A stretch of 38,698 nucleotides of DNA, from contig JACRGN010000234.1 of NCBI GenBank assembly GCA_016234205.1, positions 1 to 38,698 on the forward strand. Direction: 5' to 3'. The position numbers were made by a program, and so were the translations under genes. Shown here piece after piece: positions 9,751 through 38,698 of the stretch. The notes beneath the pieces were generated by a model. It was not told where the DNA came from, made no database searches, and saw only the letters and a program-made list of their open reading frames with translations. Source of the stretch: Nitrospinota bacterium (GTDB taxonomy: Bacteria > Nitrospinota > Nitrospinia > UBA9942). Positions within the stretch are counted from its first letter, which is position 1. The number at the start of each line of letters is the position of its first letter.

Positions 9751-11301
9751 ATGAATTTTTTAAATAGGCTTCAAGTAAAAATAATATTACCTATCATTCT
9801 CTCTATCGTCATAATTTTCTCCATAATGATATATATTGTGGATAGGATGGAGAGGGGACTGTTTCATGAGGACTGGCTTGTCAAGACTAAGATATATACA
9901 AATTCTATTTCTGCAATGATAGAAAAAGAAATGGAAGGGAAAAGACCTTTTATTGCCCGGGACCTAATCCATAAGTTGAAAAAAATTCCTGGTATGAAAA
10001 ATTTACAGGTTATCAGAACAAATGGAAAAGAGGCATTTGAGGATTTTGAAACATTTTATAAGGTAAAGGAGATTTATCTGTTTTCCCCTGAGGTTATAGG
10101 GGAGTATTTGAATTTAAAAGAGGGAAAAGCAAATGTAGTCAGTGATGAGAGGGTAGAAGCTGTTATGAAGGAGGGGAAGGAGAAAGAGTATTATGGTTAT
10201 GACGAAAACGGAAAGGTGTTCTATGATTATTATCTGCCAATTTTAAATAAATCTGAATGTCATAAATGCCATGGTGACAAAGAAAAGATTCGTGGTATTT
10301 TAAAAATCTCTCTATCCGATGAAAAATTTGCCGAGCATCTGAACAACCACCTCTCTATCATGTTATGGATATCTGCAGCTACTGTAATCATTCTGATAAT
10401 TGTGATTAGCTGGATTGTTTATAAACTGGTTTCCAAGCCGCTGAATACTGTTATTAAGACAATAAAGGAGATTGAGCATGGCGATAAAAATCAGAGGATT
10501 GGTTTGGAATCAAATGATGAGATTGGATATATGGCAACGCATTTTAATATAATGCTTGACAGACTGAAACAGGAGGGACACCTCGCATCTCTCGGCAAAA
10601 TCTCGGCTGTTTTGGCACATGAGATAAAAAATCCGATTGCCGGAATCAGCGGTGCAGTGCAGTTGATTGATGAGGGGCTCCCTGCATCTGACCCGAAGAG
10701 GGAGATTATAAATAAGATAATCAAGGAGGTTCAGAGGTTAGATTCAATGCTCAAAGACCTTCTCAAGTTCTCAAAGCCTATTACTGTAAATCCAAAAGTG
10801 CATGATTTGAATAAAGTGATAACAGATACAATTCATCTGCTGGAATTTAAATGCAGAAAGGGTAAAATATCCATTGACACAAATCTTGACAGCAATATTC
10901 CCAATATCTTTATTGACAGGGAGAAGATTCAACAGGTGTTACTTAATATCTGCATCAATGCTATTGAGTCAATGAAGGAAGATGGAAAACTTACAATTGC
11001 TACATCAATGGATAAACCGAGTGGCAGCGAATACATCCAGATAGATATTTCTGATACCGGATGCGGCATATCTCCTGATGTCATGAAAAATATCTTTACC
11101 CCTTTTTTCACAACCAAGAAAGAGGGTAGCGGGCTGGGACTGCCGATTAGCTTGAGAATAGTTGAAAAACATATGGGGACGATAAAAACAGAAAGTGTTG
11201 TTGACAAGGGGAGTAAGTTTTTAATAATATTACCTATTGATAATTCATTAAATATTCTTAAAGGAGATGCCGAATATAATGACAGCGAGGTATTATTATG
11301 A
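9751..11301 (+). CDS. Sensor histidine kinase with periplasmic c-heme (CHKCH) domain and HAMP
   Basis: Two TMs; YLPILNKSECHKCHG; DEIGYMATHFN; LAHEIKNPI; QQVLLNICINA, DTGCGI, PFFTTK, GSGLGL. Confidence 0.93.
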   Translation: MNFLNRLQVKIILPIILSIVIIFSIMIYIVDRMERGLFHEDWLVKTKIYTNSISAMIEKEMEGKRPFIARDLIHKLKKIPGMKNLQVIRTNGKEAFEDFETFYKVKEIYLFSPEVIGEYLNLKEGKANVVSDERVEAVMKEGKEKEYYGYDENGKVFYDYYLPILNKSECHKCHGDKEKIRGILKISLSDEKFAEHLNNHLSIMLWISAATVIILIIVISWIVYKLVSKPLNTVIKTIKEIEHGDKNQRIGLESNDEIGYMATHFNIMLDRLKQEGHLASLGKISAVLAHEIKNPIAGISGAVQLIDEGLPASDPKREIINKIIKEVQRLDSMLKDLLKFSKPITVNPKVHDLNKVITDTIHLLEFKCRKGKISIDTNLDSNIPNIFIDREKIQQVLLNICINAIESMKEDGKLTIATSMDKPSGSEYIQIDISDTGCGISPDVMKNIFTPFFTTKKEGSGLGLPISLRIVEKHMGTIKTESVVDKGSKFLIILPIDNSLNILKGDAEYNDSEVLL

Positions 11302-12716
11302 AAAAGGCAAGGGTATTGGTAGTTGATGATGAAAATATTATTGCATGGACACTTCAGGAAAAACTGATCAAAGAGGGTTTTGAGGTCAGGACGGTGGAGA
11401 ATGGGGAATCCGCAATTAATTCCATCAAGGAAGATATGCCTGATTTAGCCTTTGTAGATGTCTTCTTGCCTGATATAGGTGGAATTCAGGTATTGAAGGA
11501 GATTATCAGTTTGAATGAGGAAATCCCTGTAATCATGGTTACAGGCTCAGGTTCAGTTGATACAGCAGTTACTGCCATGAAGCTCGGGGCTTATGATTAT
11601 ATCAATAAGCCTTTTAACCTTGCCGAGGTTGCCATTATTGCAAAAAAGGCAATTGAGTCTAAGAGGGTAAGCCGGGAGGTTTCATGGAGATTAGAAAAAG
11701 AGAAGAAGACACACAGTATTGGCAATATAATCGGTGAGAGTAAAGAGATAAAAGGTGTCCTTGATATGATTCAGAAGATAGTCCAGAGTGATGCTACTAC
11801 TGTCCTGATAGAAGGGGAGAGCGGGACAGGGAAGGACCTTGTGGGAAGGGCTATACATTATACGAGCAGAAGGTCAGCAAGGCCTTTCATGGATATAAAT
11901 TGTACTGCGCTGCCGGATACCCTTGTCGAGAGCGAACTTTTTGGATACGAAAAAGGGGCATTTACAGACGCCAAAGCAAAAAAAGTTGGTCTCTTTGAGC
12001 TTGCAGACGGGGGGAGTGTCCTCCTTGATGAGATAGGTGATATGCCCATAGCTACACAGACAAAACTTCTTAAATTTATTGAGAATAAACGTTTCAAAAG
12101 GGTTGGAGGGGCTTCAGATATTGAAGTGGATGTGAGGATTATAGCGGCAACTAACAAGAACCTTAAAGAGGAGATTAAGAGTGGAAAGTTCAGGGAGGAT
12201 TTGTATTATCGCTTAAAGGTGATACCAATTTTTATACCGCCTCTCAGGGTAAGGACGGGCGATATACTTATTCTTGCCAATTATTTTATAAATAAATTCA
12301 ATCAGGAGTTTAGGAAAGATGTAAAAGGACTGTCATCAAAGGCTGAAAAGGCTATTTTATCATATCAATGGCCTGGAAATGTCAGAGAATTAAAAAATGT
12401 TATTGAGAGGGCGATTATCCTTGAGAGTAAAGATAAGATATTAATTGAGCATCTCCCGATTGAAGTTGTAGAGGGTGCTCCTTTTAAAGAGGAGGAACGG
12501 CAGCAGCAATCAAATTTTACCCTTCCAGAAAATGGAGTTCCCCTTGAAGAAGTAGAAAAAAATCTATTGATACAGGCATTAAAAAAGGCAAATGGAAACC
12601 AATCAAAGGCAGCAAAACTTCTAAGTTTGAGCAGATATGCACTGCGGTATAGATTGAAAAAGATTGGATATTTAAAAATAGATTCGACAGATTCAGAAAT
12701 CACACAATCTGTTTAG
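11298..12716 (+). CDS. NtrC/AtoC-family sigma54-dependent response regulator
   Basis: REC domain; GESGTGKD Walker A; ESELFGYEKGAFTDA; LLDEIGD; FREDLYYRL; WPGNVREL; Fis-type HTH. ATGA overlap with the kinase. Confidence 0.96.
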   Translation: MKKARVLVVDDENIIAWTLQEKLIKEGFEVRTVENGESAINSIKEDMPDLAFVDVFLPDIGGIQVLKEIISLNEEIPVIMVTGSGSVDTAVTAMKLGAYDYINKPFNLAEVAIIAKKAIESKRVSREVSWRLEKEKKTHSIGNIIGESKEIKGVLDMIQKIVQSDATTVLIEGESGTGKDLVGRAIHYTSRRSARPFMDINCTALPDTLVESELFGYEKGAFTDAKAKKVGLFELADGGSVLLDEIGDMPIATQTKLLKFIENKRFKRVGGASDIEVDVRIIAATNKNLKEEIKSGKFREDLYYRLKVIPIFIPPLRVRTGDILILANYFINKFNQEFRKDVKGLSSKAEKAILSYQWPGNVRELKNVIERAIILESKDKILIEHLPIEVVEGAPFKEEERQQQSNFTLPENGVPLEEVEKNLLIQALKKANGNQSKAAKLLSLSRYALRYRLKKIGYLKIDSTDSEITQSV

Positions 12717-12721
12717 TCTAA

Positions 12722-12737
12722 TGGCATATTAATTGCT
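12722..12737 (+). promoter_or_regulatory. sigma54 (-24/-12) promoter for the triheme cytochrome genes
   Basis: TGGCATATTAATTGCT, exact GG-N10-GC spacing, 5 nt after the activator stop codon. Confidence 0.85.
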
Positions 12738-12915
12738 GTTTATATATCCGCTTATTTATTTTATAAAACATTAGGAGGTGAACTGCCTATGTAATTTGTT
12801 GAAATATCTGTTTTATTTTTAGGGTTACATAAAAATTTAAAAAGATAGAATGGGCAATATAACACTTAAAGAGTGCGAAAATACACAGAAAACTAAAAAA
12901 AAGGGGGGGGATGAA

Positions 12916-13296
12916 ATGAAATTCAAATTTTTGATTGTTTTGTTTTTAGGTTTATTTACTCTTCTTTCTATGCCAGAATTTTCACGTGCAGAATATGGCG
13001 ATATCATACTAAATAGAAAGGCTGAAAGTATGAGGAAGGCAGGGGTTAATGATGTCATGTTTCCCCACTGGTTTCATCGTATAAGATTCAAGTGTAAAGT
13101 ATGTCATGAAGATATTTTTATTTTAAAGGCAGGCGCTAATGATATTAACATGAGTCTGATCATGAATGGAGAGAAATGCGGGAAGTGTCATAATGGGATT
13201 ATTGCATGGGAACCGCTTTATTGTGATAGATGTCATTCTTGGGAACCAGGATGGCTCCCCGGACCGGTTCAGCATTCAAAGAAGGTATCTAAATAG
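12916..13296 (+). CDS. Periplasmic c7-type triheme cytochrome c
   Basis: Signal peptide MKFKF...FSRA; FPHWFH..CKVCH..INM..CGKCH..CDRCH. Start reset to ATG 12916 behind a G-rich SD. Confidence 0.9.
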   Translation: MKFKFLIVLFLGLFTLLSMPEFSRAEYGDIILNRKAESMRKAGVNDVMFPHWFHRIRFKCKVCHEDIFILKAGANDINMSLIMNGEKCGKCHNGIIAWEPLYCDRCHSWEPGWLPGPVQHSKKVSK

Positions 13297-13348
13297 ATAA
13301 CAATAAATTTTATGGATTATTGAATTGACTGGGAGGGAATTTAATACG

Positions 13349-14131
13349 ATGAAAACTGATAAAAGACTTATAATGATATTAATGTTTTTGACAATTTTTG
13401 TTGTATCCTTTAATTATTCTGCCTTATCTGCTGAAAAAAAAATAGAAAAGAAGACGAAGGTTAAAGAGACGACCCCTAAACCGGTTGAGCAGTCTACTCC
13501 ATCTGCTGAAAAACCTGCTGAAACGATGCCACCTGTTAGTGGGGCAGAAGAATCATCAGGAAAAACTCTTGACCCAAAAGACCCAAGGAGCCTTATTTAC
13601 CTTGATACAAAAGGAAATAAGGCTGGAACAGGCGATGTTACTAAGTCAGGTGTTGCATCTACATTTGCCAAAGTTGGAGCGGGATGGCATCCCGCCGCAC
13701 TTGCAGAAACAAATCTTCCTATGGATAAATATAAATTAGTGGATTGGGCTAAAATTGTTAAGGAAAAGATAATAGCCCCTCAGTATAGCTTAGATATGAA
13801 CGCAAAGCCGGAAGATGAACAGATGATTGATTTAAATATACTGTTTGAGACTAAAAGTGATTTTATGGATAATGTTATATTTCCGCATAACATACATACA
13901 TGGTGGCTAAAGTGTGAGATATGTCATGAAACTGTCGGCGGGCCTATTTTTGAGCCTTCTGCAGGGGCAAACGATGTAAAAATGGTAGAAATGGCAGGAG
14001 GGAAATGGTGCGGCAGATGTCATAATAAAATAGCATTTCCGCTTGCAGATTGTAAGAGATGCCACATTTCGGCCAAGGGGGTAAAGCCCGATGAGAGCGT
14101 AACTTTAAGAACAATATCAAAATCTAAGTAA
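13349..14131 (+). CDS. c7-type triheme cytochrome c with N-terminal low-complexity linker and extra domain
   Basis: Signal peptide ...ALSA; P/E/K-rich linker; FPHNIH..CEICH..VKM..CGRCH..CKRCH. Start reset to ATG 13349 (SD gggagg). Confidence 0.88.
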   Translation: MKTDKRLIMILMFLTIFVVSFNYSALSAEKKIEKKTKVKETTPKPVEQSTPSAEKPAETMPPVSGAEESSGKTLDPKDPRSLIYLDTKGNKAGTGDVTKSGVASTFAKVGAGWHPAALAETNLPMDKYKLVDWAKIVKEKIIAPQYSLDMNAKPEDEQMIDLNILFETKSDFMDNVIFPHNIHTWWLKCEICHETVGGPIFEPSAGANDVKMVEMAGGKWCGRCHNKIAFPLADCKRCHISAKGVKPDESVTLRTISKSK

Positions 14132-14133
14132 AG

Positions 14134-14484
14134 ATGAATAAAAGGATACTTAGAGGAGGATTATTGTTGGTTTTGTGTTTTATTGCGGATATAGGGATTT
14201 CTATATTTCCAGTTCAAGCAGTTGAGAAGAAACCGCAAGATATTATTATTTTCAATAACCAAAAGGCAAGCAGGGGAAAAGCTGATATGCCCCCTGCCCG
14301 CTTTTCACATTCTATTCATAATAAAAAGCTAAAGTGTAAAGATTGCCATCCCTCTGTTTTTAAAGAGAAAAAAGGGGCGAATATAGTTACAATGAAGAAA
14401 AATATTAATGGCGAGTATTGTGGAAAATGCCACAATGGACAATTTGTATGGGATATGTCAGCTTGTCGCCGTTGTCATGTTTAG
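14134..14484 (+). CDS. Periplasmic c7-type triheme cytochrome c
   Basis: Signal peptide ...VQA; FSHSIH..CKDCH..VTM..CGKCH..CRRCH. Confidence 0.9.
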   Translation: MNKRILRGGLLLVLCFIADIGISIFPVQAVEKKPQDIIIFNNQKASRGKADMPPARFSHSIHNKKLKCKDCHPSVFKEKKGANIVTMKKNINGEYCGKCHNGQFVWDMSACRRCHV

Positions 14485-14843: not shown

Positions 14844-16055
14844 ATGAAAAAAAAGACTTGTATCACATATAGTATATCTTTTGTCCTATTTTTAGCCTTT
14901 TTATTATACAGTATCCCTGTTTCAGCAGTGCATAAAGGTGCGGGTAACCTAACTTGCGGCAATTGCCATACTATGCATAACAGTCAGGGTAACAGCGGTC
15001 TTGGTGGTGTGTCCGGTGGTTCCCTCATTTTGCTCAGGGCGGATGGTATAACAGGCAGAGAAAATATTCACAAACTTTGTCTGCAATGTCATGCGGATAC
15101 TGGAGGTCAGGCAGATACCCAACATGCACCACATGGTCAATATGCTCCAAAGGTTCACTCCGCAACTGCGACATGGAATCAGGATACTCATCTTACTGCT
15201 ATAGGGGCGGGCGGGAATTTCTATCCCGAGGTTGATGCTACAAATTTTGCATTAAGTTCAAGCGGACAAACTGCTGGTCTTGGAAAAGGACATTCTCTTG
15301 GCCTTACAAATGTAACACCTCCTGGTGGAGATACAGCAATAACAGGTTTCTCATGCACAGCCTGCCATGACCCTCATGGGACTGCAGATGCTAATGATCA
15401 AGGCATAAACAAATTTAGGAACTTAAGAAAATCAGCAACAAATGCCGGCAACAATGCCGGTGTTACACTTACTGCTGGAGATTTTACAAGTTGGGTGGGG
15501 GGGATTAACGGAACGAATTTTACAGGGGTATCCCTTCCCGGTGGAAGCGGGGCAGGGGCAGTAGCATGGCCGGTAATCAGCACCACACCTACAGGTAATT
15601 CTGCAGATGCTGCTAACAGTAACTCCTATGGTGGGGGTAGTACGGGTGGTATTTCAAGATGGTGTGCCCAGTGCCATGATAACTGGCATGAGGCTCTTAC
15701 AACGGGAAATCTTGATAACAATAGTATGGATTGGCACAGGCATCCGGTTGATAATCTTTTGAGTGATACAACAACTACTTCAGGTGCAGGAGTAACTATT
15801 ATAAATACTGCTAATTATTCAGTTACAACTGCGGGTCAGTATCTACCGGTTGCGAGTGGTTCAGGGGCTAATAGAGTATTTTATAAAACCAATGAATCAA
15901 CAGATAAGGTTATGTGTCTATCCTGCCATTTTGCTCATGGTGGTCCTTACAATGACAATCTACGATGGGATTATACCTCATCTGTTTCATCAGGTAGTCA
16001 GAACGGCAATGGTGTGCCTTCAACCAGAGGGTGTCAGTTGTGTCATAATAGGTGA
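14844..16055 (+). CDS. omcS: Extracellular hexaheme cytochrome c, OmcS-like (candidate nanowire subunit)
   Basis: Signal peptide ending VSA|VH; six CxxCH: CGNCHTMHNS, CLQCH, CTACHDPHG, SRWCAQCH, VMCLSCHFAH, CQLCH, plus GGNF, KGH, PPGG and RHP in the order I recall for G. sulfurreducens OmcS. Start ATG 14844 (TTG 14835 in the track). Confidence 0.8.
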   Translation: MKKKTCITYSISFVLFLAFLLYSIPVSAVHKGAGNLTCGNCHTMHNSQGNSGLGGVSGGSLILLRADGITGRENIHKLCLQCHADTGGQADTQHAPHGQYAPKVHSATATWNQDTHLTAIGAGGNFYPEVDATNFALSSSGQTAGLGKGHSLGLTNVTPPGGDTAITGFSCTACHDPHGTADANDQGINKFRNLRKSATNAGNNAGVTLTAGDFTSWVGGINGTNFTGVSLPGGSGAGAVAWPVISTTPTGNSADAANSNSYGGGSTGGISRWCAQCHDNWHEALTTGNLDNNSMDWHRHPVDNLLSDTTTTSGAGVTIINTANYSVTTAGQYLPVASGSGANRVFYKTNESTDKVMCLSCHFAHGGPYNDNLRWDYTSSVSSGSQNGNGVPSTRGCQLCHNR

Positions 16056-16110: not shown

Positions 16111-16143
16111 GGGAGGCTTGTAAAAAAGCTTCCCTTTTTTTTT
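16111..16143 (+). terminator. Rho-independent terminator after the OmcS-like gene
   Basis: GGGAGGCTT-gtaaaa-AAGCTTCCC stem-loop (one G-U pair) followed by T9. Confidence 0.85.
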
Positions 16144-16155
16144 GCCTTGATAAAT

Positions 16156-17169
16156 ATGAACCGTTTAAAATTAATTATAATTTTTATTGCTATTATATTA
16201 TTTGGACTTGTAAATACAGAATCAGTAATATGGGCATCACAAGGTATTGACATTAAATATATTACATCATATTCTGCAAAGTCAATGGGCGGGGTTATAC
16301 CTTTAAAAATATATTTTGACCGTCAGCAGAATGAACTTTATATTGGCAGTCAAAGTAAGGAAATTGCTGTTATTAATGAGGATGGTATGATAGTTCACAG
16401 GATTCCACTTGCAGATTCCCCAAAATTACTCTGTGTAAATAAAAATGGCAATATTTACATATCTGATAATAAAGGGGGGATAAGTATTCTTAACTATCGG
16501 GGGGAGTATATAAAAAATCTTGACCTCTCGGCTGTGCCAGATAACACACTTTTAGCAATTCAATCATTTCATGTGGATGAGAATGAACATCTTTATATTG
16601 GTGATGGAAGACTAAGCAGAATTATCGTCCTCGATAGTTCAGGTAATTTTTTATATCAATTTGGTAAAAAGGGTAGTGGCGAGGGGGAATTCTTGAATGC
16701 AAAGGCAATAACTACCGATGCTGAGAGGCTATATCTTATTGACCCGCCACTATTCAGGGTATCAGTTTATGATAAAAAGGATGGTAGATTTCTTTATATG
16801 TTCGGACAGATATCGAGCCTTTTTGGAGGCTTCAGTATGCCATCAAGTATTGATACAGATGGAAAGAGGCTATTTGTTGTAGATACTAATAGGGCAATGG
16901 TAATAGTTTTCGACAGGGAGGGAAAGCCAATCATTGAATTTGGCGGGGTTGGCAGAAATCCTGACAGCCTCTCATGGCCCTCGGATATTAAAGTAGATGG
17001 GAATGGCAAGATCTATGTTTGCGATACAGGAAACGGAAGGATTCAGATATATGAACTTATAGATGTCCAGCAAATTGATGAAGTTAAACCACCAGAGACT
17101 GTTGAATCTGGCAAGGCGGCCGAGCCAATAGAGGTTGAGCCTGTTATTGAAAAAATAATTGTGAAGTGA
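16156..17169 (+). CDS. Exported NHL-repeat beta-propeller protein
   Basis: Signal peptide; FGKKGSGEGEF, FSMPSSIDTD, LSWPSDIKVDGNGKIYVCDTGNGRIQIY. Confidence 0.9.
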   Translation: MNRLKLIIIFIAIILFGLVNTESVIWASQGIDIKYITSYSAKSMGGVIPLKIYFDRQQNELYIGSQSKEIAVINEDGMIVHRIPLADSPKLLCVNKNGNIYISDNKGGISILNYRGEYIKNLDLSAVPDNTLLAIQSFHVDENEHLYIGDGRLSRIIVLDSSGNFLYQFGKKGSGEGEFLNAKAITTDAERLYLIDPPLFRVSVYDKKDGRFLYMFGQISSLFGGFSMPSSIDTDGKRLFVVDTNRAMVIVFDREGKPIIEFGGVGRNPDSLSWPSDIKVDGNGKIYVCDTGNGRIQIYELIDVQQIDEVKPPETVESGKAAEPIEVEPVIEKIIVK

Positions 17170-17203: not shown

Positions 17204-18082
17204 ATGATGAAAATGTCTCTCTTAATATTTGGAATTCTCATTATCCTTACATCTAAGGTAGAATCCACACCTTCAAATTTCTATTTTATCAGTGCCATTG
17301 AGAAATTCTCTGATGAGTATAGGTTTGAGGGGTTATCATCAATTTTTATTAATGATGAGGAACTTTATGTTGTAGATAATGGAGGAAACCACATATATAT
17401 TTTTAATCTGGATGGGTCATCTGTTTTTCAATTTGGAAAAGAGAAAGGGATTGCACTTCCCATTGATGTTTTTGTATACAACAATTATATGTATGTGAGT
17501 GCGGAAGGAAAGGATTTTATAGAGATTTTAAATATGAGGGGTGAAAAGATTGGAAAGATAGAACCTCCATACGAAGGGTTTACACCTGGTAAGATGGCAG
17601 CAATTGAAAGGGAAGGGTTCTTTGTTGTAGATAGAAAATCTCTCAATATATGTGTATTTGACAGGGATGGTAAATATCAATATAATTTTGGTGGAAGAAA
17701 TCTATTTAAATCAATTGCTGGTATTGCGGCGAAAAACGGGAAGATTTATGTATCGGTAATGAGCGCTGACCCTGTCGTAAGGGTATTTGATACCAAGGGT
17801 GAATACCTGACAGGTTTTGGACATATTGGTGAAAGCGATCAAAATTTCTCTATGCCATCAGGAATAAAAGTAGATGACAATGGAAATATATGGGTGGTGG
17901 ATGCCTTCAAGCACAGGGTTATTGGCTTTAATATAGAAGGTAAGAAGCAGAATGAATTTGGCATATCAGGAAATCCCAAAGAAGATCTTTATTATCCGCT
18001 AAGTATTGATTCAAAGGGGGACATATTTTATGTAATAGAAAAAGGACGGGGTAGAATAAGTATGTTCAGGAGGGTGGATTAA
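17204..18082 (+). CDS. Exported NHL-repeat beta-propeller protein
   Basis: Signal-like N-terminus; LYVVDNGGNHIYIF, FSMPSGIKVDDNGNIWVVDAFKHRV, LYYPLSID. Confidence 0.9.
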   Translation: MMKMSLLIFGILIILTSKVESTPSNFYFISAIEKFSDEYRFEGLSSIFINDEELYVVDNGGNHIYIFNLDGSSVFQFGKEKGIALPIDVFVYNNYMYVSAEGKDFIEILNMRGEKIGKIEPPYEGFTPGKMAAIEREGFFVVDRKSLNICVFDRDGKYQYNFGGRNLFKSIAGIAAKNGKIYVSVMSADPVVRVFDTKGEYLTGFGHIGESDQNFSMPSGIKVDDNGNIWVVDAFKHRVIGFNIEGKKQNEFGISGNPKEDLYYPLSIDSKGDIFYVIEKGRGRISMFRRVD

Positions 18083-19260: not shown

Positions 19261-20853
<1,593 letters not shown>

Positions 20854-21050: not shown

Positions 21051-21067
21051 ATCTTTTTCTTTTGTTC

Positions 21068-24336: not shown

Positions 24337-24400
24337 TAGTTTTAGAGTTGTAGTTTTAGAGTTGTTGATTTGGCTGAGGAGATTAAGTATAATTAAAAAC

Positions 24401-31276: not shown

Positions 31277-32494
31277 ATGCCATCTTTTAAATATAAGGCT
31301 ACAGATATTACTGGAATGGTTATTGAAGGGGTTATGGAAGCAAAGGAGGAAAGGTCTGTCATAACCATACTTCAAAATCGCGGGTATATCCCTATAAATG
31401 TTGCCCCCCCCGATGTTAAAAAAAAGGGTAGAGAAAACCCCTGGCGGCTTCTCTTACAACGTGTTCCACAGCAACAGGTCATAAATTTTACCAGGGAGCT
31501 GGCAGGTTTGTTAAAGGCAGGTATTCCTATTGATAGAAGTATTAAGACGCTTATTGGTATTGTAGAAAAGAAGAGATTTAAAAAGGTGCTTGAAAATATC
31601 TTAAGTTCCATTGAGAAGGGGAGTTCTGTTGCCGAGGCACTGGAAGATTTTCCAACAGTGTTTCCACCCTTTTATGTCAACTTAGTACGGGCTGGAGAGG
31701 CAAGCGCTACCCTTGATGCGACCCTCAGGAGGTTAAGTGATTTTCTTTCAAGGTCTAAGGAGCTCAGAAACTATATCATATCTGCTATGATATATCCTGC
31801 TATTCTTACAATCTTCAGTGGATTCTCTATAATCATCCTGTTAACCTTCGTTATACCAAAATTTGCGGAGACATTCTCAGAGATAGGACAGGCAATCCCC
31901 CTATCAACAACAATTCTAATGAGGGTAAGCGGGACTGTTAGAAATTACTGGTGGGTATTTATCCTCTCCCTGCTTGGTCCCTACCTGCTCTTTTACAGTT
32001 ATAAGAGAACAGATGACGGAAGGCTTGTCTGGGATCAACTCAAGCTTAAGATGCCTGTTGTTGGGACAATTATCAGAAATACAGAGGTTGTAAGATTCTC
32101 CAGGGCAATGGGGACCCTTCTTAAAGGCGGGGTTCCAGTTTTAAAATGTATTGATATTGTCAGTAATACCATTACCAACCGTTCTATTGCAAAGGCTATC
32201 ACGAGACTCTATGAGAGTGTGAGACATGGTGAGGGGCTTGGGCTGCCATTAAAGAAGGAGGCAATATTTCCACTTATGGCAGTTGAGATGATTATCGTGG
32301 GTGAAGAGACAGGGCGATTGGATGAGATGCTTCTTGAGGTGGCAGATACATTTGAAAGCCATCTGAGGGAAAATGCAAAGAGATTTCTATCTATCATGGA
32401 GCCGGCATTAATAATCTTCATGGGGGTGGTTGTAGGTTTTATCGTTGTATCCATGCTGCTTGCTATCTTCAGTATAAACGAGATACCATTTTAA
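31277..32494 (+). CDS. gspF: Type II secretion inner-membrane platform protein F
   Basis: FTRELAGLLKAGIP, AGEAS, SAMIYPAIL, FVIPKF, VGEETGRLDEML, MEPALI. Confidence 0.93.
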   Translation: MPSFKYKATDITGMVIEGVMEAKEERSVITILQNRGYIPINVAPPDVKKKGRENPWRLLLQRVPQQQVINFTRELAGLLKAGIPIDRSIKTLIGIVEKKRFKKVLENILSSIEKGSSVAEALEDFPTVFPPFYVNLVRAGEASATLDATLRRLSDFLSRSKELRNYIISAMIYPAILTIFSGFSIIILLTFVIPKFAETFSEIGQAIPLSTTILMRVSGTVRNYWWVFILSLLGPYLLFYSYKRTDDGRLVWDQLKLKMPVVGTIIRNTEVVRFSRAMGTLLKGGVPVLKCIDIVSNTITNRSIAKAITRLYESVRHGEGLGLPLKKEAIFPLMAVEMIIVGEETGRLDEMLLEVADTFESHLRENAKRFLSIMEPALIIFMGVVVGFIVVSMLLAIFSINEIPF

Positions 32495-32568: not shown

Positions 32569-33021
32569 ATGTTTATGAAATGGGGGCTTTTTAAAATCAA
32601 AAATAATGAGAGGGGTTTTACCCTTATAGAGCTGTTGATAGTGCTTATAATCCTTGGACTACTCGCTGCACTGGTCGCGCCGAGGTTCTTTGGTCATGTG
32701 GGGAGATCTAAGCTTAAGGCGGCAAAGATGCAGATAGAACTCTTTGGCACCGCTCTGGATGCGATGCGTCTGGATATAGGACGATACCCTACAACCGATG
32801 AGGGTCTGGCATTGACACGGTCAAGTCCGGGGTCTGTGGAGGGGTGGAGGGGTCCATATATACCCAAGAATATACCACTTGACCCATGGAGAAGACCCTA
32901 TGTATATCTCTCTCCAGGCGAACATGGAGAATATGAAATTATATCCTATGGTGCTGATGGTGCGGCTGGTGGCACAGGAGAGGATCAAGATATCGTCAAC
33001 TGGAAAGACATTGAGGAGTAG
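32569..33021 (+). CDS. gspG: Type II secretion major pseudopilin G
   Basis: NERG|FTLIELL; ALDAMRLDIGRYPTTDEGL; WRGPY; DPWRRPYVY; ISYGADG. Confidence 0.95.
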   Translation: MFMKWGLFKIKNNERGFTLIELLIVLIILGLLAALVAPRFFGHVGRSKLKAAKMQIELFGTALDAMRLDIGRYPTTDEGLALTRSSPGSVEGWRGPYIPKNIPLDPWRRPYVYLSPGEHGEYEIISYGADGAAGGTGEDQDIVNWKDIEE

Positions 33022-33544
33022 AAATCTTCAATCTTCAATCTTCAATCTTCAATCTATTGACGGGTTCACTATGGTGGAACTCCTGGTGGTTCTGTTCCTC
33101 ATCGGACTGATGCTTTCTATTGCTGTTCCCTCCTTTATACATACCGTAGAAACTCTTAAATTCAAGGCAACTGCCCGTAAGATAGTCTCAACACTTAGAT
33201 ATGCCAGAAATACCGCAGTATTTAAGCAGATGTCCCAGGCTGTTGGTTTTGATATAGATAATAATCTCTACTACCTGGAGGGGCATGGGATTGAGGGGGA
33301 TGAAGACCCTCTCTCAAGGAGTATAAAAACCTTTACGCTCCCTTCAGATGTCTCTATTAAGTCTCTGGAGATGGTTAAAGAGAGGATTGAATCAGGAAAA
33401 GGTAATATCCTGTTTTATCCTGACGGGAGTTCCAGCAGCGGCACAATCATAGTGAGAAATAAGAGGACAGATGAGGGATTCAGAATTGAGGTAGATATTT
33501 TTACCGGTCTCACACAGGTAACATTTTATAGTTTCAGTGAATAG
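33011..33544 (+). CDS. gspH: Minor pseudopilin H (GspH/FimT-like)
   Basis: DG|FTMVELL; LRYARNTAV; ILFYPDGSSSSGTI. Most plausible start is in-frame TTG 33011 overlapping the end of gspG. Confidence 0.85.
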   Translation: MRSRNLQSSIFNLQSIDGFTMVELLVVLFLIGLMLSIAVPSFIHTVETLKFKATARKIVSTLRYARNTAVFKQMSQAVGFDIDNNLYYLEGHGIEGDEDPLSRSIKTFTLPSDVSIKSLEMVKERIESGKGNILFYPDGSSSSGTIIVRNKRTDEGFRIEVDIFTGLTQVTFYSFSE

Positions 33545-33601: not shown

Positions 33602-34003
33602 ATGAACAATGAAAAGGGTTTTAGTCTTCTGGAGGCGCTGGTTGCTATTACTATACTGGGAATCACCCTCGGAATCATCATGGCACTCTTTTCCGGTGCA
33701 ATGAGATCGGTAGGTGCCTCAGAGGAGTATTCTAAAGCACTTCTCCTTGCGAGGAAGGAAATGGAGGATACAATGCTCATGGAGGATATCCACTTAGGAG
33801 CAGAGGATGGGAGTTTTGGCAATGGCTACACATGGAAGAGAACTATAAGCTCTCTTAAGATATCAGAAGAAGATGAATATTTAAATGAGAACCTCCCTTT
33901 TAACCTATACGAGATTGAAATAAAAGTAAAATGGTGGAGTTGGAAAGTAGAGAAGATGATGAGTCTCAGGAGTATAATTCTCAGGGAGACTCTTGAGGAG
34001 TAG
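33602..34003 (+). CDS. gspI: Minor pseudopilin I
   Basis: EKG|FSLLEALVAITIL; LYEIEIKVKW; position in operon. Confidence 0.87.
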   Translation: MNNEKGFSLLEALVAITILGITLGIIMALFSGAMRSVGASEEYSKALLLARKEMEDTMLMEDIHLGAEDGSFGNGYTWKRTISSLKISEEDEYLNENLPFNLYEIEIKVKWWSWKVEKMMSLRSIILRETLEE

Positions 34004-34087
34004 GAACAAAAAATCAAAGTGTCAGTGTCAGTTTTTAGTGTCAGTGCTTTTTTACTGACACTGACACTATTCACTAACACTTATTAT

Positions 34088-34771
34088 ATGTCTAAAAGAT
34101 TTCACCGAATATTTACCAATGTTGAAGGATTCACATTGATGGAGATACTTGTCTCCATGCTCATATTAAGTATGGTTGCCATTTTGATATTGCAGGGATT
34201 AAGGGTTGGTTATAAAGTGTGGGAGAAGGGGGAATCAAAGGTTGCCCACCAGCAAAGGATGAGGATTGCCTTAGATACAATTTCTAAACAACTGAGTTCT
34301 GCATATCCATTTCTTGTAAAGGATGAAAATGGAAGCCCCTCCCCTGTGTTCAAGGTGGAGTCTAAAATGATACAGTTTGTAACAAGTAGGCCTATAGGAA
34401 TGAGCAATCGCGGAGGATTGTTTTTTGTAATCTATAGCTTGAAAAATATCCCTTATTCAGAAAATAGGATACTGGTTGCTTATCAGAAACCTATTTACAT
34501 GGTTGAGGATTTTAAAAATCTTGATATAAATAATGAGGAGGCTATTAATCTAATACCTGATATTATGAACATAGAATGGAGCTATTCATCATGGGAAGGG
34601 GATGGGTTGGAGGATTCTTTAAAGATACAGAAAGAGAAAGAAAAATCTCTGCCCAAAGAGGTTACGCTGACACTGAGGCACAGTGAAGGAGAGCATAGCT
34701 ATCTTACACAGGTTACAATCCCCATCATGATGTCAAGCAAGAAGCCATTAAAAGAGAAAACAAAGACCTAA
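34088..34771 (+). CDS. gspJ: Minor pseudopilin J
   Basis: EG|FTLMEILVSM; C-terminal LPKEV. Start reset to ATG 34088 because the upstream extension is a hexamer repeat. Confidence 0.85.
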   Translation: MSKRFHRIFTNVEGFTLMEILVSMLILSMVAILILQGLRVGYKVWEKGESKVAHQQRMRIALDTISKQLSSAYPFLVKDENGSPSPVFKVESKMIQFVTSRPIGMSNRGGLFFVIYSLKNIPYSENRILVAYQKPIYMVEDFKNLDINNEEAINLIPDIMNIEWSYSSWEGDGLEDSLKIQKEKEKSLPKEVTLTLRHSEGEHSYLTQVTIPIMMSSKKPLKEKTKT

Positions 34772-34774: not shown

Positions 34775-34951
34775 TAGCCACAGAGGCACGGAGGCACAGA
34801 GAGAGACAAAGGCAAAAAAGATTAAGGAGAAAGGGAGAAGATGGAGAGATGGAGAAAAGGTAAAATTAAATATTTTTCCCATTCCCCCCTTTCTCAAATT
34901 TCCCCATTTCTCCTTATTGTTTTCCTCTGTGTCTCAGTGCCTCTGTGGCAA
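34775..34951. repeat. Nested inverted repeat element between gspJ and gspK
   Basis: gccacagaggcacggaggcacagag [aaggagaaagggagaagatggagagatggagaaa ... ttcccattccccctttctc...ttccccatttctcctt] ctctgtgtctcagtgcctctgtggc. Confidence 0.85.
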
Positions 34952-34970
34952 ATTTTATAATTTCATATAC

Positions 34971-35987
34971 ATGAACAAAAATCTTATAAACGAAAAAGGA
35001 ATCGCACTCATCATGGTCTTGTGGGTTGTCATCCTTCTGGGCGTCATTGTGAATACCTTTGCATGGATGGTCCGTACTGAGGCACAGGCGGTTGGTAATT
35101 TCAAGGAAGAGACGAGGGCATATTACCTTGCAAGGGGCGGTTTTCAGCAGACTATCCTGAAACTGCTAAAGAGTCAAGAAAGCACTGTCCATGAACCTCT
35201 AAAAGAAGGGCTGAAGTTAGACGGCAGGGTTAACATGATCCATTTTATAGATGGGTATGCAGAGGTGAGAGTGATGGATGAAGGGGGGAAGATAGATATA
35301 AATGTGGCAAGTAGAGATGACATTATCAGGGTTATTACTGCCCTGGGTTTTGATGTGGAAGATAAAGATGTAATAGCAGATTCTATACTTGACTGGATTG
35401 ATGAGAATAACTTTCATAGACTTAACGGGGCTGAGGATGATTATTACAGGTCACTCCCTGAACCATACAGGGCTAAAAATGAACCACTTAACACAGTAGA
35501 TGAGCTCCTGTGGGTCAGGGGTATCACCCCGAAAATATTCTATAACCAGGTGGTAAGCCGAAGTCCTGAATGGGGCGAAATGGAAACCGAAGCCTTGAGT
35601 GAATCGAATGGGAATATATCAATAGAAGATAGAAAATTCAGAACAGGGCTGGAGAGTGTCTTTACAGTGTTTACCGGTTCTAATAAGATAAATATTAATA
35701 CTGCACCTATCTCACTACTTTTATCCCTCCCTGGTGTTGGTGAGGCGCAAATTGAAAGAATAATCGCTGTAAGGGAAGAGAGACCCTTTCGTGATATGAG
35801 TGATCTGATAGGGACAGTTGCATTCCCTCCTGAAAACGGAAAATTTATCAGCTTTTCTCCTTCAGAGATATATACTATAGAGGTTACAGGAAAGTTAAAT
35901 GGAAGCCATGTCCGACGCTCCTTTAAATCGGTAGTCAAGGTCAAGGGGAAGACTGATTATGATATTCTTTATTGGAAGGAAGGATAA
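34971..35987 (+). CDS. gspK: Minor pseudopilin K
   Basis: EKG|IALIMVLWV; DEGGKIDIN; IADSILDWID; GAEDDYY; ELLWVRGIT; ININTAP. Start reset to ATG 34971. Confidence 0.92.
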   Translation: MNKNLINEKGIALIMVLWVVILLGVIVNTFAWMVRTEAQAVGNFKEETRAYYLARGGFQQTILKLLKSQESTVHEPLKEGLKLDGRVNMIHFIDGYAEVRVMDEGGKIDINVASRDDIIRVITALGFDVEDKDVIADSILDWIDENNFHRLNGAEDDYYRSLPEPYRAKNEPLNTVDELLWVRGITPKIFYNQVVSRSPEWGEMETEALSESNGNISIEDRKFRTGLESVFTVFTGSNKININTAPISLLLSLPGVGEAQIERIIAVREERPFRDMSDLIGTVAFPPENGKFISFSPSEIYTIEVTGKLNGSHVRRSFKSVVKVKGKTDYDILYWKEG

Positions 35988-36038: not shown

Positions 36039-37514
36039 ATGTTACTATCAAAATCATCATTAGGGATAAGCTTTTGGGATGATAGGGTTGATCTTCTCCA
36101 TTTAAATCGCTTCTTTGGTAAGACTACTGTGGTAAATCGTCTATCTATGCCTTTTGTATACGGGATGAAGAGGGAAGAATTTGAAAGGGATGTATCAGCC
36201 TTTATGAAGGCAAATCGACTTCAAAGGATAATGACCTATGTTGCCCTTCCACGAAGGGATGTTGTGCTTCTCAACCTTGAATTACCCGGTAATGTTGAAG
36301 AGAATTTGAGGGAGGTAGTAGGTTATGAGCTGGATAATTATACGCCTTTTTCCGTGGATACAGCCTATTTCGATTTTCAAAATCTGGGGCATACCGTGGA
36401 TGGAAGTAAGGTCAGAATACTTCTAACAGCTATAGAGAAAGAGCGTCTCAACTACTACCTCGAACTCCTTAAAGGGGTGGGACTCAAGCCTATTTCTATG
36501 GAGATAAGCTCCACTGCCATTGCCAGAACAATTCCATTTGATAGCCTCAGCGGTGGCAAAAATGCCGTCCTTTACATAGGGGCTAATACATGCGAGATCT
36601 CCTTTCATAACGAAAAGAATCTGGAGTACTCAAGGGCGTTTGATATAACCTCTCCTGAACTTAATTTAGGAAAAAGTCAGGTTATAGATACAATTCTGAA
36701 GGAATATAAAAGGGTATTTCCTTCTGGTTTTGGTGAACAAGAAATAAAGAAAGTGGTTGTATTAGGGGATGGGATATCCGACGAGGAGTTTCTAAAGGAA
36801 ATCTCTAATGCTATAGGTAAAGAGGTAGTGAGGGTTAAAACTTTTAAAGGTATAGATAGTGATGGCTCAGATATTCAACTTCAGAGGGCTGCCCTTGGCT
36901 GTGCTCTGCGAGGACTTTATGGTGATACCGCTGCGATGAATTTCCTTGCTGTGAAGGTAGATAGAGATAAGACACCGAGGGTTCTGAGATTTGCAGCAAT
37001 AATATTATTCATCATTTTAGTATCCCTGTGGGTGGGAGAGTTTGTCTTACGGGTAAAGAAGGAAATTAAAACCTTAACCCAGATTAAAGAGAAGGTAATG
37101 CTGCTGGAAAGGGCAGCTATCTCTGTTGAAGGACTTAAAAAAGAGATTATTGTTATGGAAGAGCGTCTCCCGCAACTTAATAATTTCAGTAAAAGGAGAG
37201 TGATCTTTCTTTCCTTTTTTAAGGAGCTTACTGATGTCATTCCATCGAATACTTACCTGACTATGCTTAAATATCATGATAATGAGATAGAGATTGTTGG
37301 ACGTTCAGCATCAGCAGTTAGCCTTCTTTCTCTCCTTGAGGCATCCCCTGTTTTTAAGGATGTGGAATTCTCTGCTACAGTGAAAAGGAGAGAGGCTGTT
37401 AGAGAAAGGTCTGGAGGAAGGGCTGTCATTGCAGGAGGTGAAACTCTGCCTTCTATTAGTGAGGATATATATTTAGAAAACTTTAGTATTAAAGCAAAAT
37501 TAGAGGGCATGTAA
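36039..37514 (+). CDS. gspL: Type II secretion protein L (PilM-like cytoplasmic domain, TM, PilN-like domain)
   Basis: LNLELP...YELDNYTPF...AYFDF; ALGCALRG; TM; ELTDVIPSNTYL...LEASPVFKDVEF; position after gspK. Confidence 0.8.
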   Translation: MLLSKSSLGISFWDDRVDLLHLNRFFGKTTVVNRLSMPFVYGMKREEFERDVSAFMKANRLQRIMTYVALPRRDVVLLNLELPGNVEENLREVVGYELDNYTPFSVDTAYFDFQNLGHTVDGSKVRILLTAIEKERLNYYLELLKGVGLKPISMEISSTAIARTIPFDSLSGGKNAVLYIGANTCEISFHNEKNLEYSRAFDITSPELNLGKSQVIDTILKEYKRVFPSGFGEQEIKKVVVLGDGISDEEFLKEISNAIGKEVVRVKTFKGIDSDGSDIQLQRAALGCALRGLYGDTAAMNFLAVKVDRDKTPRVLRFAAIILFIILVSLWVGEFVLRVKKEIKTLTQIKEKVMLLERAAISVEGLKKEIIVMEERLPQLNNFSKRRVIFLSFFKELTDVIPSNTYLTMLKYHDNEIEIVGRSASAVSLLSLLEASPVFKDVEFSATVKRREAVRERSGGRAVIAGGETLPSISEDIYLENFSIKAKLEGM

Positions 37515-37547
37515 TCCCCCTTAATAAAGGGGGTTAGGGGGTTGTTT

Positions 37548-38129
37548 ATGAATATTACAAAGAAAAGCAAAAAGATTTTAATGTTCGGCGGGATTTTGTT
37601 AGGTATCACCGCCTTCTATACCTTGCTTTTTGAACCCCTTATGAAATATGAGAAAATAATGGAGGAGGATATCGCACTCAAGGAAGGACTCTTAACTCGT
37701 TATAAGGCCACCCTTGAGGGCAGATCTGACATAGAGGCGAAACATAGAAAGGGAAAGACCCTCTTAGAGAGGGCAAAGAACCGTATCTTTATTGCAAAGA
37801 CTCAGGCACTCGCTGCAGCACAGCTCCAGTCCATCATACAGAGCAGCGCCGGAATACATAATGTAACGATTAAGAGTATTAACATAAAGAAGGTAGAAAA
37901 GCCTGTCCCGTTAGCTGTTAAAATGGGAGTTGAGGGTTACAATACGATATCCCTTCAGCTTGCCACCTATAGCAATATGAGGGGGCTCATTGATCTCCTA
38001 TATGACCTTGAAACAGCCAGCAGGTTTATTAATATTACCTCAGTTACCATAAAAGGTGAGATTGTAAAGGAGGCATCAAGGCTTGATGCAACCCTCATTG
38101 TTGAGGGGCTTGCTGAGATAGAGGGCTAA
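37548..38129 (+). CDS. gspM: Type II secretion protein M (GspM/PilO-like)
   Basis: N-terminal TM, coiled coil, ALAAAQLQS, LIDLLYDLE; position after gspL. Confidence 0.8.
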   Translation: MNITKKSKKILMFGGILLGITAFYTLLFEPLMKYEKIMEEDIALKEGLLTRYKATLEGRSDIEAKHRKGKTLLERAKNRIFIAKTQALAAAQLQSIIQSSAGIHNVTIKSINIKKVEKPVPLAVKMGVEGYNTISLQLATYSNMRGLIDLLYDLETASRFINITSVTIKGEIVKEASRLDATLIVEGLAEIEG

Positions 38130-38139
38130 AAAATAATGG

Positions 38140-38229
38140 AACCACAAGATTTCACAGATTTACACCAGATGACATGCTAAGAGTTCAGAATAACATTCTT
38201 GTGATAATCTTGTGTTAATCTCGTGGTTT
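38140..38229. repeat. Inverted tandem repeat (cacagatt)n / (aatcttgtg)n
   Basis: aaccacaagatttcacagatttacaccagat ... ttcttgtgataatcttgtgttaatctcgtggtt; related left-arm units at 22642-22706. Confidence 0.72.
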
Positions 38230-38234
38230 TAAAT

Positions 38235-38698
38235 ATGAAAAAGGTTTTTATTATAATAAACATCATTTTATCATCCCTGATTCTTTTTGAGGGATGGCAG
38301 TTTTTTAGAGTATGGTCAGCTGAATCAGCCCTCTCTTTTATAAAGATGGGGACTACCGGCTTAAATAAGCCATCCACTGTTACACCTGTTACAAGGAGGG
38401 CAATAGGCAAGATTGAAAAAAAAGAGAATATTCCACGGGAGGGGATGGTATTATCGGGGGTGACCTTTGAAGGAGAAGGGGATAAATTATTGCCCTTAAG
38501 GGAATCCTTTGCAGGGGCTATTGAAAAAAACCTTTTTCACCCACAGAGGAGAGAGGGGGCTGAGGAGATAAAGATTGAATCCCCATCATCTTCTCTATCA
38601 AAACCGAAACCAAAACCGATTATTATGGAGGGGCTCGTTATCATCGGAAATTATAAAGCTGCTGTTATTAAAGATACTGCACCCCAGGTCAAGGGTGG
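38235..38698 (+). CDS. GspC-like T2SS protein, partial at the window edge
   Basis: Not in the ORF track; hand translation MKKVFIIINIILSSLILFEGWQFF...IEKNLFHPQRRE...KPKPKPIIMEGLVIIGNYKAAVIKD; open to the end; follows gspM. Confidence 0.65.
   Translation, partial: MKKVFIIINIILSSLILFEGWQFFRVWSAESALSFIKMGTTGLNKPSTVTPVTRRAIGKIEKKENIPREGMVLSGVTFEGEGDKLLPLRESFAGAIEKNLFHPQRREGAEEIKIESPSSSLSKPKPKPIIMEGLVIIGNYKAAVIKDTAPQVKG

Follow-up and report, generated by a model that had tools for sequence, protein, structure and literature searches.

The stretch of DNA analysed here (the window, 38,698 nt) is the entire contig JACRGN010000234.1 (C125 in our numbering) of a groundwater Nitrospinota metagenome-assembled genome (MAG; GCA_016234205.1, 2.79 Mb in 387 contigs, G+C 39%, completeness 83%). 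From position 9751 to the window end all long open reading frames (ORFs) lie on the plus strand, and they include two hexaheme cytochrome genes, hexA and hexB, whose products are, judging by their family profiles, true homologues of the nanowire protein OmcS. We consider it probable that the first part of this span (module A, 9751-20853) is a compact or reduced form of the widespread, published OmcS-type extracellular electron transfer (EET) cluster, and that the second part (module B, from 21062 to beyond the window end), which contains a type II secretion system (T2SS), is a separate unit. With the same reasonable confidence we take positions 9751-38698 to be the central part of a larger island, at least 68 kb long, rich in cytochrome genes and built of independently moving modules, in which the T2SS is tied to module A by genome co-occurrence and neighbourhood and not as one operon.

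The hexA product (14844..16055; 403 aa, six CxxCH motifs), the candidate major filament subunit, matches the solved OmcS structure 6ef8 in a phmmer search (E 3.7e-7, residues 4-361), and a profile of 88 hexA-family sequences matches OmcS at E 4.9e-19. Its AlphaFold model, built without hemes, has a mean pLDDT of 73.7. When this model was compared with 48,161 chains by VIA-align, OmcS was the sole chain with a Z of at least 5 (Z 8.8, rmsd 4.6 over 260 residues) and the next chain had a Z of 2.4. Foldseek placed 6ef8_A at rank 1, weakly (E 1.5e-3, TM 0.34). The hexB product (18084..19250; 388 aa, six CxxCH) represents a second, distinct and conserved subfamily, with 24% identity to hexA (E 1e-12). 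As a single sequence it had no significant match in the PDB and a profile was required: that of 16 orthologues from other loci matched OmcS at E 2.9e-15 over residues 9-404 of 407, and the hexB and hexA families align to each other in hhalign with a probability of 100 (E 2e-48).

Two short motifs are common to hexA and OmcS, one at heme 1 (CHTMHNS) and one at heme 5 (CLSCH). All 88 sequences of the hexA family keep the second His of the former, H45; the hexB equivalent is CHVIH, in which H69 is invariant in all 16. In OmcS, His16, three residues after the first CxxCH, ligates heme 5 of the next subunit. A His-heme bond between subunits is stated in general terms in PMC12307469. We propose that hexA, and perhaps hexB, would polymerise head-to-tail via this conserved His. 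A complex prediction with two mature hexA copies gave a score of 0.00, which carries no weight either way.

Three triheme cytochrome genes lie upstream of hexA, each with three CxxCH motifs and each scoring above the Pfam Cytochrome_C7 cut-off of 24.8 bits. The first, c7a (12850..13296), reaches 49.4 bits, and 63 bits against TIGR04257 (cut-off 40); its likely start is a later ATG, at MKFKF. The second, c7b (13325..14131, 39.8 bits), has a long low-complexity linker, and the third, c7c (14134..14484), scores 51.1 bits. With the two hexahemes and a single motif in the sensor kinase described below, the window holds 22 CxxCH motifs from 9751 to its end (1+3+3+3+6+6). Between and behind the hexaheme genes lie those of two exported NHL beta-propellers, NHL1 (16147..17169; NHL 56.5 bits, DUF5128 62 bits) and NHL2 (17204..18082; NHL 43 bits, DUF5128 47.6 bits), and of an exported lipoprotein-like protein, Lpo (19261..20853), which combines an LpoB/GNA1162-like N-terminal domain with Ig-like repeats and has weak Pfam matches only. 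In the AlphaFold 2 model of Lpo (pLDDT 83.5) an alpha/beta domain is joined by beta-sandwiches. Its Foldseek matches were Ig/FnIII structures only and do not resolve the N-domain, and a similarity of 0.75-0.81 to the GNA1162 and CsgG clusters is a lead only. Lpo is the sole candidate for a channel-like secretion protein, and no porin or channel fold was recognised.

Module A opens with a histidine kinase gene (9751..11301; HAMP, HisKA, HATPase_c) whose product is a candidate heme-c sensor with one CxxCH in its periplasmic loop (CHKCH, residue 170). Its match to the Pfam family Mcp40H-20_sensor (E 1.8e-5, 25.4 bits) is under the cut-off of 27, and against the PDB its sensor loop gave non-significant rows only, with 3b47 at E 0.27. 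A neighbouring chemoreceptor, also with one CxxCH (residue 173), scores above threshold for this family (33.4 bits). Single CxxCH motifs in the periplasmic loops of both proteins recall the periplasmic, PAS-like c-heme sensor domains of the Geobacter chemoreceptors GSU0582 and GSU0935 (Mcp40H-20_sensor, PDB 3b47), from which the kinase differs in its sub-threshold match and in its output, a HisKA kinase acting on a sigma-54 activator and not on chemotaxis. The activator is an NtrC-type sigma-54 enhancer-binding response regulator (11298..12716; Response_reg, Sigma54_activat 229 bits, HTH_8). As rpoN is found in the genome, the two-component sigma-54 set appears complete: HisKA/HATPase kinase, REC-AAA+-HTH activator, -24/-12 motifs and rpoN. 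Divergent from the kinase gene lies that of a response regulator with an HD_5 (HD-GYP-like) output domain (8425..9504, minus strand; HD_5 139 bits, Response_reg 87 bits).

For comparison we used genomes of the same species (G002), the same genus (G001, G003) and a sister genus of the same family (G006), the present genome being G000; G004, G005 and G007 are family members without hexA. Three sigma-54-type motifs lie in module A. P1 (TGGCATATTAATTGCT; 12722..12737), before the triheme operon, has an identical counterpart in the orthologous position of G001, G002 and G003. P2 (14786..14801), which closes a 350-nt AT-rich spacer before hexA, is kept in G001 and G003 with one base different and in G002, and a related motif precedes hexA in G006. 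P3 (17176..17191), before NHL2-hexB-lipoprotein, is identical in G001, G002 and G003; the true NHL2 start may lie later, because P3 is only 13 nt before the first ATG in G000 (about 130 nt in G003). The window has three copies of the pattern TGGCAT-N5-WTGCT, at these places, always intergenic and on the plus strand, against 0.02 expected, a statistic that flatters because the motif was narrowed post hoc after a scan with a loose consensus. That scan, allowing two mismatches, gave 19 matches versus 13.9 expected and hence no enrichment. The stronger support is comparative: the three sites stand at orthologous positions in G001 and G003, where the proteins are about 65-90% identical. A fourth such motif lies between gspE and the gene of a nine-heme cytochrome, MHC9, in G000 and G003. 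Directly 3' of hexA is a strong intrinsic-terminator-like hairpin with a T-run (16111..16134; 9-pair stem with 5 GC pairs, T9 tail). With its own promoter motif and this hairpin, hexA seems to be a structural gene that is expressed separately and at a high level, as would be expected for an abundant subunit.

Most of the individual features that a first-pass annotation of 9751-38698 had named thus survive closer analysis. Its count of 22 CxxCH motifs was exact, its three sigma-54 promoters correspond to P1-P3 and are kept in sister species, its trihemes are of c7/PpcA type, its two OmcS-like hexahemes match OmcS by profile, and its heme sensor is borne out as far as the single loop CxxCH and the sub-threshold family match go. 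The export signals that it saw on nearly every accessory gene also recur, as an N-terminal hydrophobic segment was present in 17 of 17 proteins from c7a to the WD40 protein (mean at least 2.27, versus at most 1.57 for the region's cytoplasmic proteins); this is a heuristic based on the 12-residue Kyte-Doolittle mean, not SignalP. Its guess of a Nitrospinota/Nitrospirota-like host, made from repeat style and an expansion of FGE genes, was apt: the host is a Nitrospinota MAG and its FGE family is expanded.

Taken together, module A suggests the following course of events. The membrane kinase would sense the periplasmic redox state via a c-type heme in its loop and phosphorylate the NtrC-type activator, which in turn would fire the three sigma-54 promoters and so express (i) the three periplasmic c7 trihemes, (ii) hexA and (iii) NHL2-hexB-lipoprotein. 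After Sec export and heme attachment, the trihemes may carry electrons through the periplasm and hand them to the OmcS-like proteins, much as PpcA-E serve OmcS, the presumed direction of flow being from trihemes to hexahemes. The NHL propellers and the LpoB-like/Ig lipoprotein might aid assembly or anchoring. Module B, as a separate unit, holds nine exported non-heme proteins, an extra T2SS that is complete (F-M, D, E and a C/N-like gene), MHC9, putatively driven by sigma-54, and further giant cytochromes.

The wider setting became visible when the window was joined to its neighbours. Its final 141 nt are the exact start of the reverse-complemented contig C212, into which the T2SS genes run on; C212 leads to C92 by an equal overlap, and the first 141 nt of the window match C270 exactly. 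There is a single partner at each contig end, and the three joins are confirmed by an equal order on the contiguous G002:C13 and G002:C69 (same species, protein identity 89-100%). The joined scaffold C270-C125-C212-C92 has 68,287 nt and 76 CxxCH motifs in 14 proteins. As it extends the cytochrome genes on both sides, the span 9751-38698 cuts through a larger island. The minus strand of the scaffold carries a c7 triheme, an NHL propeller, a 15-heme cytochrome, a response regulator with a GGDEF domain, a chemotaxis set and then the HD-type response regulator. On the plus strand follow module A, module B with the T2SS including GspD and GspE, MHC9 and a monoheme cytochrome, then further cytochromes: past gspE, C212 and C92 encode, after MHC9 and the monoheme, a c7 triheme and a diheme/EB_dh protein, and further on a protein of 1264 aa with NHL and six PKD domains, a cytochrome of 1749 aa that has 20 CxxCH motifs, and two more FGE-fold proteins. 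MHC9 had no match in the PDB.

The chemotaxis set (positions 1-9504, minus strand, and C270) comprises CheA, CheB, a methyl-accepting chemotaxis protein (heme-sensor domain, one CxxCH), CheW and CheR-TPR, together with a Cache/PAS kinase and the HD-type response regulator. It lies between two cytochrome groups and adjoins module A also in G001, G002 and G003, which suggests that redox or energy taxis is tied to the island. The gene of the HD-type response regulator likewise adjoins module A in G001, G003 and G002, and a similar gene lies within the OmcS-like cluster of another locus, L076.

The claim of the first-pass annotation that did not hold is the central one, a single self-contained system of 29 kb comprising sensing, relay, filament subunits, assembly helpers and secretion. 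In G001 and G003 module A has the order kinase, activator, three trihemes, hexA, NHL1, NHL2, hexB, lipoprotein, with the chemotaxis set upstream, and in both, as in G006, Lpo is its end; on G003:C152 a further 15 kb past the lipoprotein gene are without any module B gene. Module B is found in these genomes on a separate contig (G003:C149, G001:C66) in the order rhodanese, methyltransferase, 554-aa protein, FGE1, FGE2, TPR-FGE, rhodanese, SNase, WD40, GspF-GspE, MHC9. In both genomes a paralogous FGE/rhodanese/WD40 set stands before it, and G003:C149 has 20 kb of other genes ahead of it. In G006 B-type genes lie upstream of module A in scrambled order, and the kinase gene is a remnant; on G006:C57 and G006:C19, MHC9, c1 and c7 stand before FGE1, and GspF-K and GspL-M-N-D are on separate contigs, the latter with a diheme gene next and no GspE seen.

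A survey beyond the genus points in the same direction. We kept 75 loci with hexA relatives from species-representative genomes, 72 of them outside the window's genus, and searched flanks of 10 kb on either side (tblastn, E <=1e-4) where the contig allows. Neighbours among the 72 were NHL propellers (33), a sigma-54 activator (20), a lipoprotein-like gene (15), TPR proteins (14) and a c7 triheme (11); an NHL1-type gene follows the hexA-type gene in many of the other loci, and the order c7, hexA, NHL, NHL, hexB, TPR recurs in many MAGs. FGE, rhodanese, WD40 and SNase genes were each found within these flanks at 0 of 72 loci, gspD/E/F at one (L079) and a pseudopilin at one (L143). For rhodanese and FGE1 the flanks are wide enough, because both genes are 5-8 kb from hexA in the window. 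A whole-genome check in five genomes with hexA relatives found GspF on the contig of hexA in one only. Most of the 75 loci are in MAGs titled Deltaproteobacteria or Thermodesulfobacteriota, often with several copies per genome, and none of those kept is a Geobacter record. L079 (JBBTGV010000100.1, 8.4 kb, from a 'Deltaproteobacteria bacterium' MAG) has gspD-gspE-gspF followed after 1.2 kb by a hexA-family gene.

These distributions bear directly on the possibility that modules A and B are after all one integrated nanowire system, in which the T2SS pseudopilus pushes the OmcS-like polymer out. The co-directional, contiguous arrangement in G000 and G002, the confinement of this T2SS paralogue to hexA-bearing genomes (see below), the cytochrome genes on both sides of the T2SS, the sigma-54 motif of the same type after gspE and before the nine-heme gene, and the independent gspD-E-F-hexA adjacency in L079 are all what such a system would show. 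Furthermore, module A is without a peptidyl-prolyl isomerase or an obvious outer-membrane channel, so that it would need some other exporter, and the export of OmcS in Geobacter is reported, in the sources cited below, to need a T2SS-like pseudopilus. The two modules are nevertheless on different contigs in G001 and G003, none of the 72 loci outside the genus has an FGE, rhodanese, WD40 or SNase gene in its 10-kb flanks and only one has gspDEF there, and no sigma-54 motif was found before the first rhodanese gene or gspF. Moreover, FGE-fold genes are expanded throughout the genome, with 23-24 further paralogous places in G000, so that their presence here needs no special link. We consider the integrated system distinctly unlikely.

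The T2SS itself deserves a closer look, as it is not the one common to the family. GspD and GspE are on the overlapping contig C212, which makes the set of D, E, F, G-K, L and M complete, in an order that is contiguous in G003 and G002. G000 has at least three sets of T2SS or type IV pilus (T4P)-like genes: that of the window, GspD-E-F on C358 with GspG on C259, and GspI, K, L and D on C132. It is to the C132 set that the T2SS of G004, G005 and G007 is orthologous (GspK 71-74%, GspD 73%, GspL 62%); to that of the window it has only 24-45% identity. An initial assignment of the window T2SS as the housekeeping one, based on the 45% identity of GspF in these genomes, was rejected when a reciprocal search matched another G000 set. 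Further genes of T2SS/T4P type in G000 were seen on C358, C259, C132, C6 and C237, and the C358 set is followed by glycosyltransferase and ABC-2/Wzt polysaccharide-export genes. Among 120 Nitrospinota genomes the hexA family is present in 8, which belong to 4 of 30 genera, and a GspL of the window type (at least 69% identity) in 5, the other 115 having at most 27% identity or no match. All five are hexA-positive, and none of the 112 hexA-negative genomes has the window-type GspL. The orthology of the C132 set elsewhere and this restriction to hexA-bearing genomes identify the window T2SS as an extra, lineage-restricted paralogue. The linkage is incomplete, as three of the eight hexA-positive genomes (81%, 92% and 58% complete) are without it, a further point against an integrated system. 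Of the two ways in which the first-pass annotation had said it could fail, one has thus been found, the cytochromes being unlinked to the T2SS and accessory block in G001 and G003, but the other has not, as the gsp genes are an extra paralogue.

At the opposite extreme, module B could be an unrelated secretion system for exoproteins of the FGE, rhodanese and WD40 types that are expanded in this lineage, landed beside module A by repeat-mediated rearrangement, and the hexahemes could be cytochromes of the periplasm or surface that do not polymerise. Proteins secreted by a T2SS often have their genes next to the gsp operon. In G001 and G003 module B is preceded by a paralogous FGE/rhodanese/WD40 set and not by cytochromes, palindromic repeats lie at the module junctions, and the gene order is scrambled in G006. 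This view does not explain why the MHC9 gene is the next one after gspE in G000, G002 and G003 and has a conserved sigma-54 motif in G000 and G003, why the T2SS occurs only in hexA-bearing genomes, or why hexA invariantly keeps the inter-subunit His and the heme-5 motif of OmcS; we regard it as unlikely.

The reading that we prefer, a compact OmcS-type cluster next to a separate module B, has to be weighed against several observations. Modules A and B are adjacent in G000 and G002 and near each other in G006, cytochrome genes flank the T2SS on both sides, the MHC9 gene shares the sigma-54 motif type of module A, and the T2SS co-occurs one-way with hexA across genomes. That co-occurrence may itself be a single inheritance event, because the five genomes belong to two sister genera. 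The flank test is weak for gspDEF, because the T2SS is here 15 kb from hexA and so outside 10-kb flanks. The order in G006 is either a real rearrangement or the product of a chimeric contig, and the G006 contigs may thus be misassembled. Support from RNA was sought in 20 runs, all of which proved to be groundwater or soil DNA, with no RNA run containing the locus. Finally, any likeness of the two NHL propellers between hexA and hexB to OscD of the published cluster is one of description.

Shen et al. 2025 (Cell Chem Biol) reportedly describe that published cluster, the OmcS-companion (osc) cluster of Geobacter sulfurreducens. As far as the citing papers describe it, the cluster was published in 2025 and includes OscH, a prolyl-isomerase chaperone (PMC13194489), so that the first-pass annotation, which knew of no comparable OmcS locus, has been overtaken. 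From the same descriptions, module A resembles the osc cluster in its paralogous OmcS-family hexahemes (omcS, omcT and oscC in Geobacter; hexA and hexB here), in the beta-propeller proteins and lipoproteins of the cluster, and in a core that recurs across phyla. It differs, by those accounts, in being without an OscH-like prolyl isomerase in the window and without a recognisable channel trio (OscE, F, G), in having its own heme-sensor kinase, sigma-54 activator and three sigma-54 promoters, in the three c7 trihemes inside it, and in its host, a Nitrospinota, a phylum in which the family is rare (8 of 120 genomes). A Pfam scan of the window proteins found no Rotamase or other peptidyl-prolyl isomerase family, the rest of the genome not having been searched for one. 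The L076 cluster, which also encodes a prolyl isomerase resembling SurA, an HD-type response regulator and two large multiheme cytochromes, is closer than module A to the osc cluster as the citing papers describe it (PMC13194489).

The trihemes have a precedent too. According to Portela et al. 2024 (PMC10954620), the triheme c7 cytochromes PpcA-E charge OmcS nanowires, and PpcA-type and OmcS families co-occur at genome level in diverse bacteria. The three exported Cytochrome_C7 trihemes found here co-occur with OmcS homologues in like manner; unlike PpcA-E as presented there, they share a regulon-like cluster with hexA, lying just upstream of it, and one has a 150-residue linker.

As to secretion, the placement of MtrC and OmcA on the outer surface of Shewanella is T2SS-dependent. 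Export of OmcS and OmcZ in Geobacter needs a T2SS-like PilA-N/C pseudopilus, according to Gu et al. 2021 as relayed in PMC12307469 and PMC13712944. The window resembles these cases in that a pseudopilus machine is encoded beside multiheme cytochromes bound for the surface; it differs from PilA-N/C in having a complete canonical gsp set, an extra paralogue physically next to the cytochrome genes. Most likely the window T2SS exports outer-surface cytochromes and/or the neighbouring exoproteins. A more specific proposal is that it is devoted to OmcS-type filaments and giant multiheme cytochromes, as their exporter or assembly motor, in a lineage whose OmcS cluster would have lost its isomerase and channel genes, with the FGE, rhodanese, SNase and WD40 proteins as its periplasmic scaffold or cargo adaptors; this is tentative and we hold it to be rather doubtful. 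Our search of the accessible literature found no described Nitrospinota OmcS locus and no OmcS cluster joined to gsp, although Shen et al. 2025 may list variants.

Module B begins with the exported non-heme proteins. First is a double rhodanese (21062..21916; Rhodanese 60 bits in two stretches), followed by a SAM-methyltransferase-fold protein with an N-terminal hydrophobic segment (21874..22653; Methyltransf_31 70 bits); a signal-peptide-like start is odd on such a protein, because SAM is not expected outside the cytoplasm. The next, a 554-aa exported repeat protein (22672..24336), has internal DNA repeats (D5), no Pfam family and a faint lectin match only. Then come three FGE-sulfatase-fold proteins (PF03781): FGE1, membrane-anchored or exported (24326..25258, 183 bits), FGE2, exported (25498..26334, 203 bits), and a TPR+FGE protein with a lipobox-like LMGC (26353..27987; TPR families, PF03781 147 bits). 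An exported single rhodanese (28090..28572, 47.6 bits; no match in the PDB), an exported SNase-fold protein (28579..29067, 37.9 bits) and an exported 734-aa WD40 protein (29064..31268, 425 bits in 10 stretches), whose C-terminal tail stems from a repeat hairpin, complete the nine.

The nearest solved relatives of FGE2 are CalU17 (the nearest), FGE, ToxD, PvdO and PorK, a ring protein of the type IX secretion system. In the C-terminal GGSW...RC region, where the catalytic Cys pair would be expected, FGE1 and FGE2 have one Cys and TPR-FGE none, as judged by eye. These proteins may plausibly have a structural or binding role, and the nine exported non-heme proteins as a whole probably serve in binding or as scaffolds without catalysis, or are cargo of the T2SS. 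The TPR+FGE query gave 19-27 matches in each of five relatives, FGE-fold and TPR paralogues taken together, and repeated FGE/rhodanese/WD40 sets are present on contig C20 of G000 and upstream of module B in G001 and G003.

The T2SS genes follow in the order GspF, the platform protein (31277..32494; T2SSF 196 bits, TIGR02120 402 bits, just below its cut-off of 424); GspG, the major pseudopilin (32569..33021; T2SSG 124.6 bits, N_methyl); and the minor pseudopilins GspH (ORF 32879..33544; GspH 27.6 bits, N_methyl), with its real start probably at about 33030-33060, upstream of GFTMVE, a GspI-position protein (33602..34003; N_methyl 32.6 bits), a GspJ-position protein (34019..34771; N_methyl 21.9 bits), the latter two assigned with the help of gene order, and GspK (34917..35987; T2SSK_1st 64.5 bits, T2SSK 25 bits). 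Next are a GspL-position protein of PilM+PilN type (36039..37514; PilM_2 49 bits, PilN 48.7 bits, weak T2SSL), GspM of subtype b (37542..38129; T2SSM_b 31 bits) and, in the position of GspC/GspN, a membrane-anchored protein of 229 aa with no Pfam family (38223..38698 and onto C212), the G003 orthologue of which lies between GspM and GspD. No gene for the prepilin peptidase GspO is present in the T2SS cluster, the rest of the genome not having been searched for one.

The first-pass annotation had also noted that gspF begins a mere 8 nt after the WD40 stop. This is correct (stop at 31268, start at 31277), and a palindromic repeat of (AGTGTC)n/(GACACT)n units sits at the junction (31191..31261; families D9-D11, fold -29.6 kcal/mol, z -6.2), just before gspF. 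Because 31191-31261 is such a hairpin, the 8-nt gap is partly the result of an ORF reading through the repeat; in the G003 and G006 orthologues the gap is about 75-90 nt. Elements like it lie at 32495-32559, 27998-28058, 34009-34087 and 9508-9583, and further hairpins at 2790-2865 and 20880-21060. Tandem 6-7-nt units also form hairpins at gene boundaries at 18123-18209, 19262-19370, 21918-21990, 22817-22864 and 29071-29118. Their arms are either (AGAAGAC)n facing (GTCTTCT)n or (AGTGTC)n facing (GACACT)n, with fold z of -6 to -8 and one of -2.2. Where such hairpins fall inside the 5' ends of ORFs, one arm encodes a charged 'RRQKTEDRRQKTE' stretch and the opposite arm the hydrophobic signal-peptide core 'CLLSSVF'; this is the case for hexB, the lipoprotein, the methyltransferase, the 554-aa protein, GspD and MHC9.

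How OmcS-type filaments leave the cell is disputed, with a T2SS-like pseudopilus set against a porin-like Osc pathway in PMC13712944 and PMC12307469. With no recognisable OscH-type chaperone or Osc-type channel in the cluster and an extra T2SS adjacent to it, a clean genetic or heterologous test is conceivable here. If the T2SS is truly dedicated to nanowire export, the locus would be natural genetic evidence for pseudopilus-driven export; if the link is coincidental, the locus adds one more ordinary case to a kind of cluster already published. Companion genes of OmcS and the charging of OmcS by c7 trihemes are known; what is new is the phylum, the regulatory circuit of the cluster's own and the adjoining extra T2SS. 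The circuit is compact and apparently complete for an OmcS-type cluster, with a heme sensor, a sigma-54 activator and four conserved promoters. Nitrospinota are known mainly for nitrite oxidisers, and the present findings show OmcS-type machinery reaching groundwater members of the phylum, for which lateral acquisition may be an explanation.

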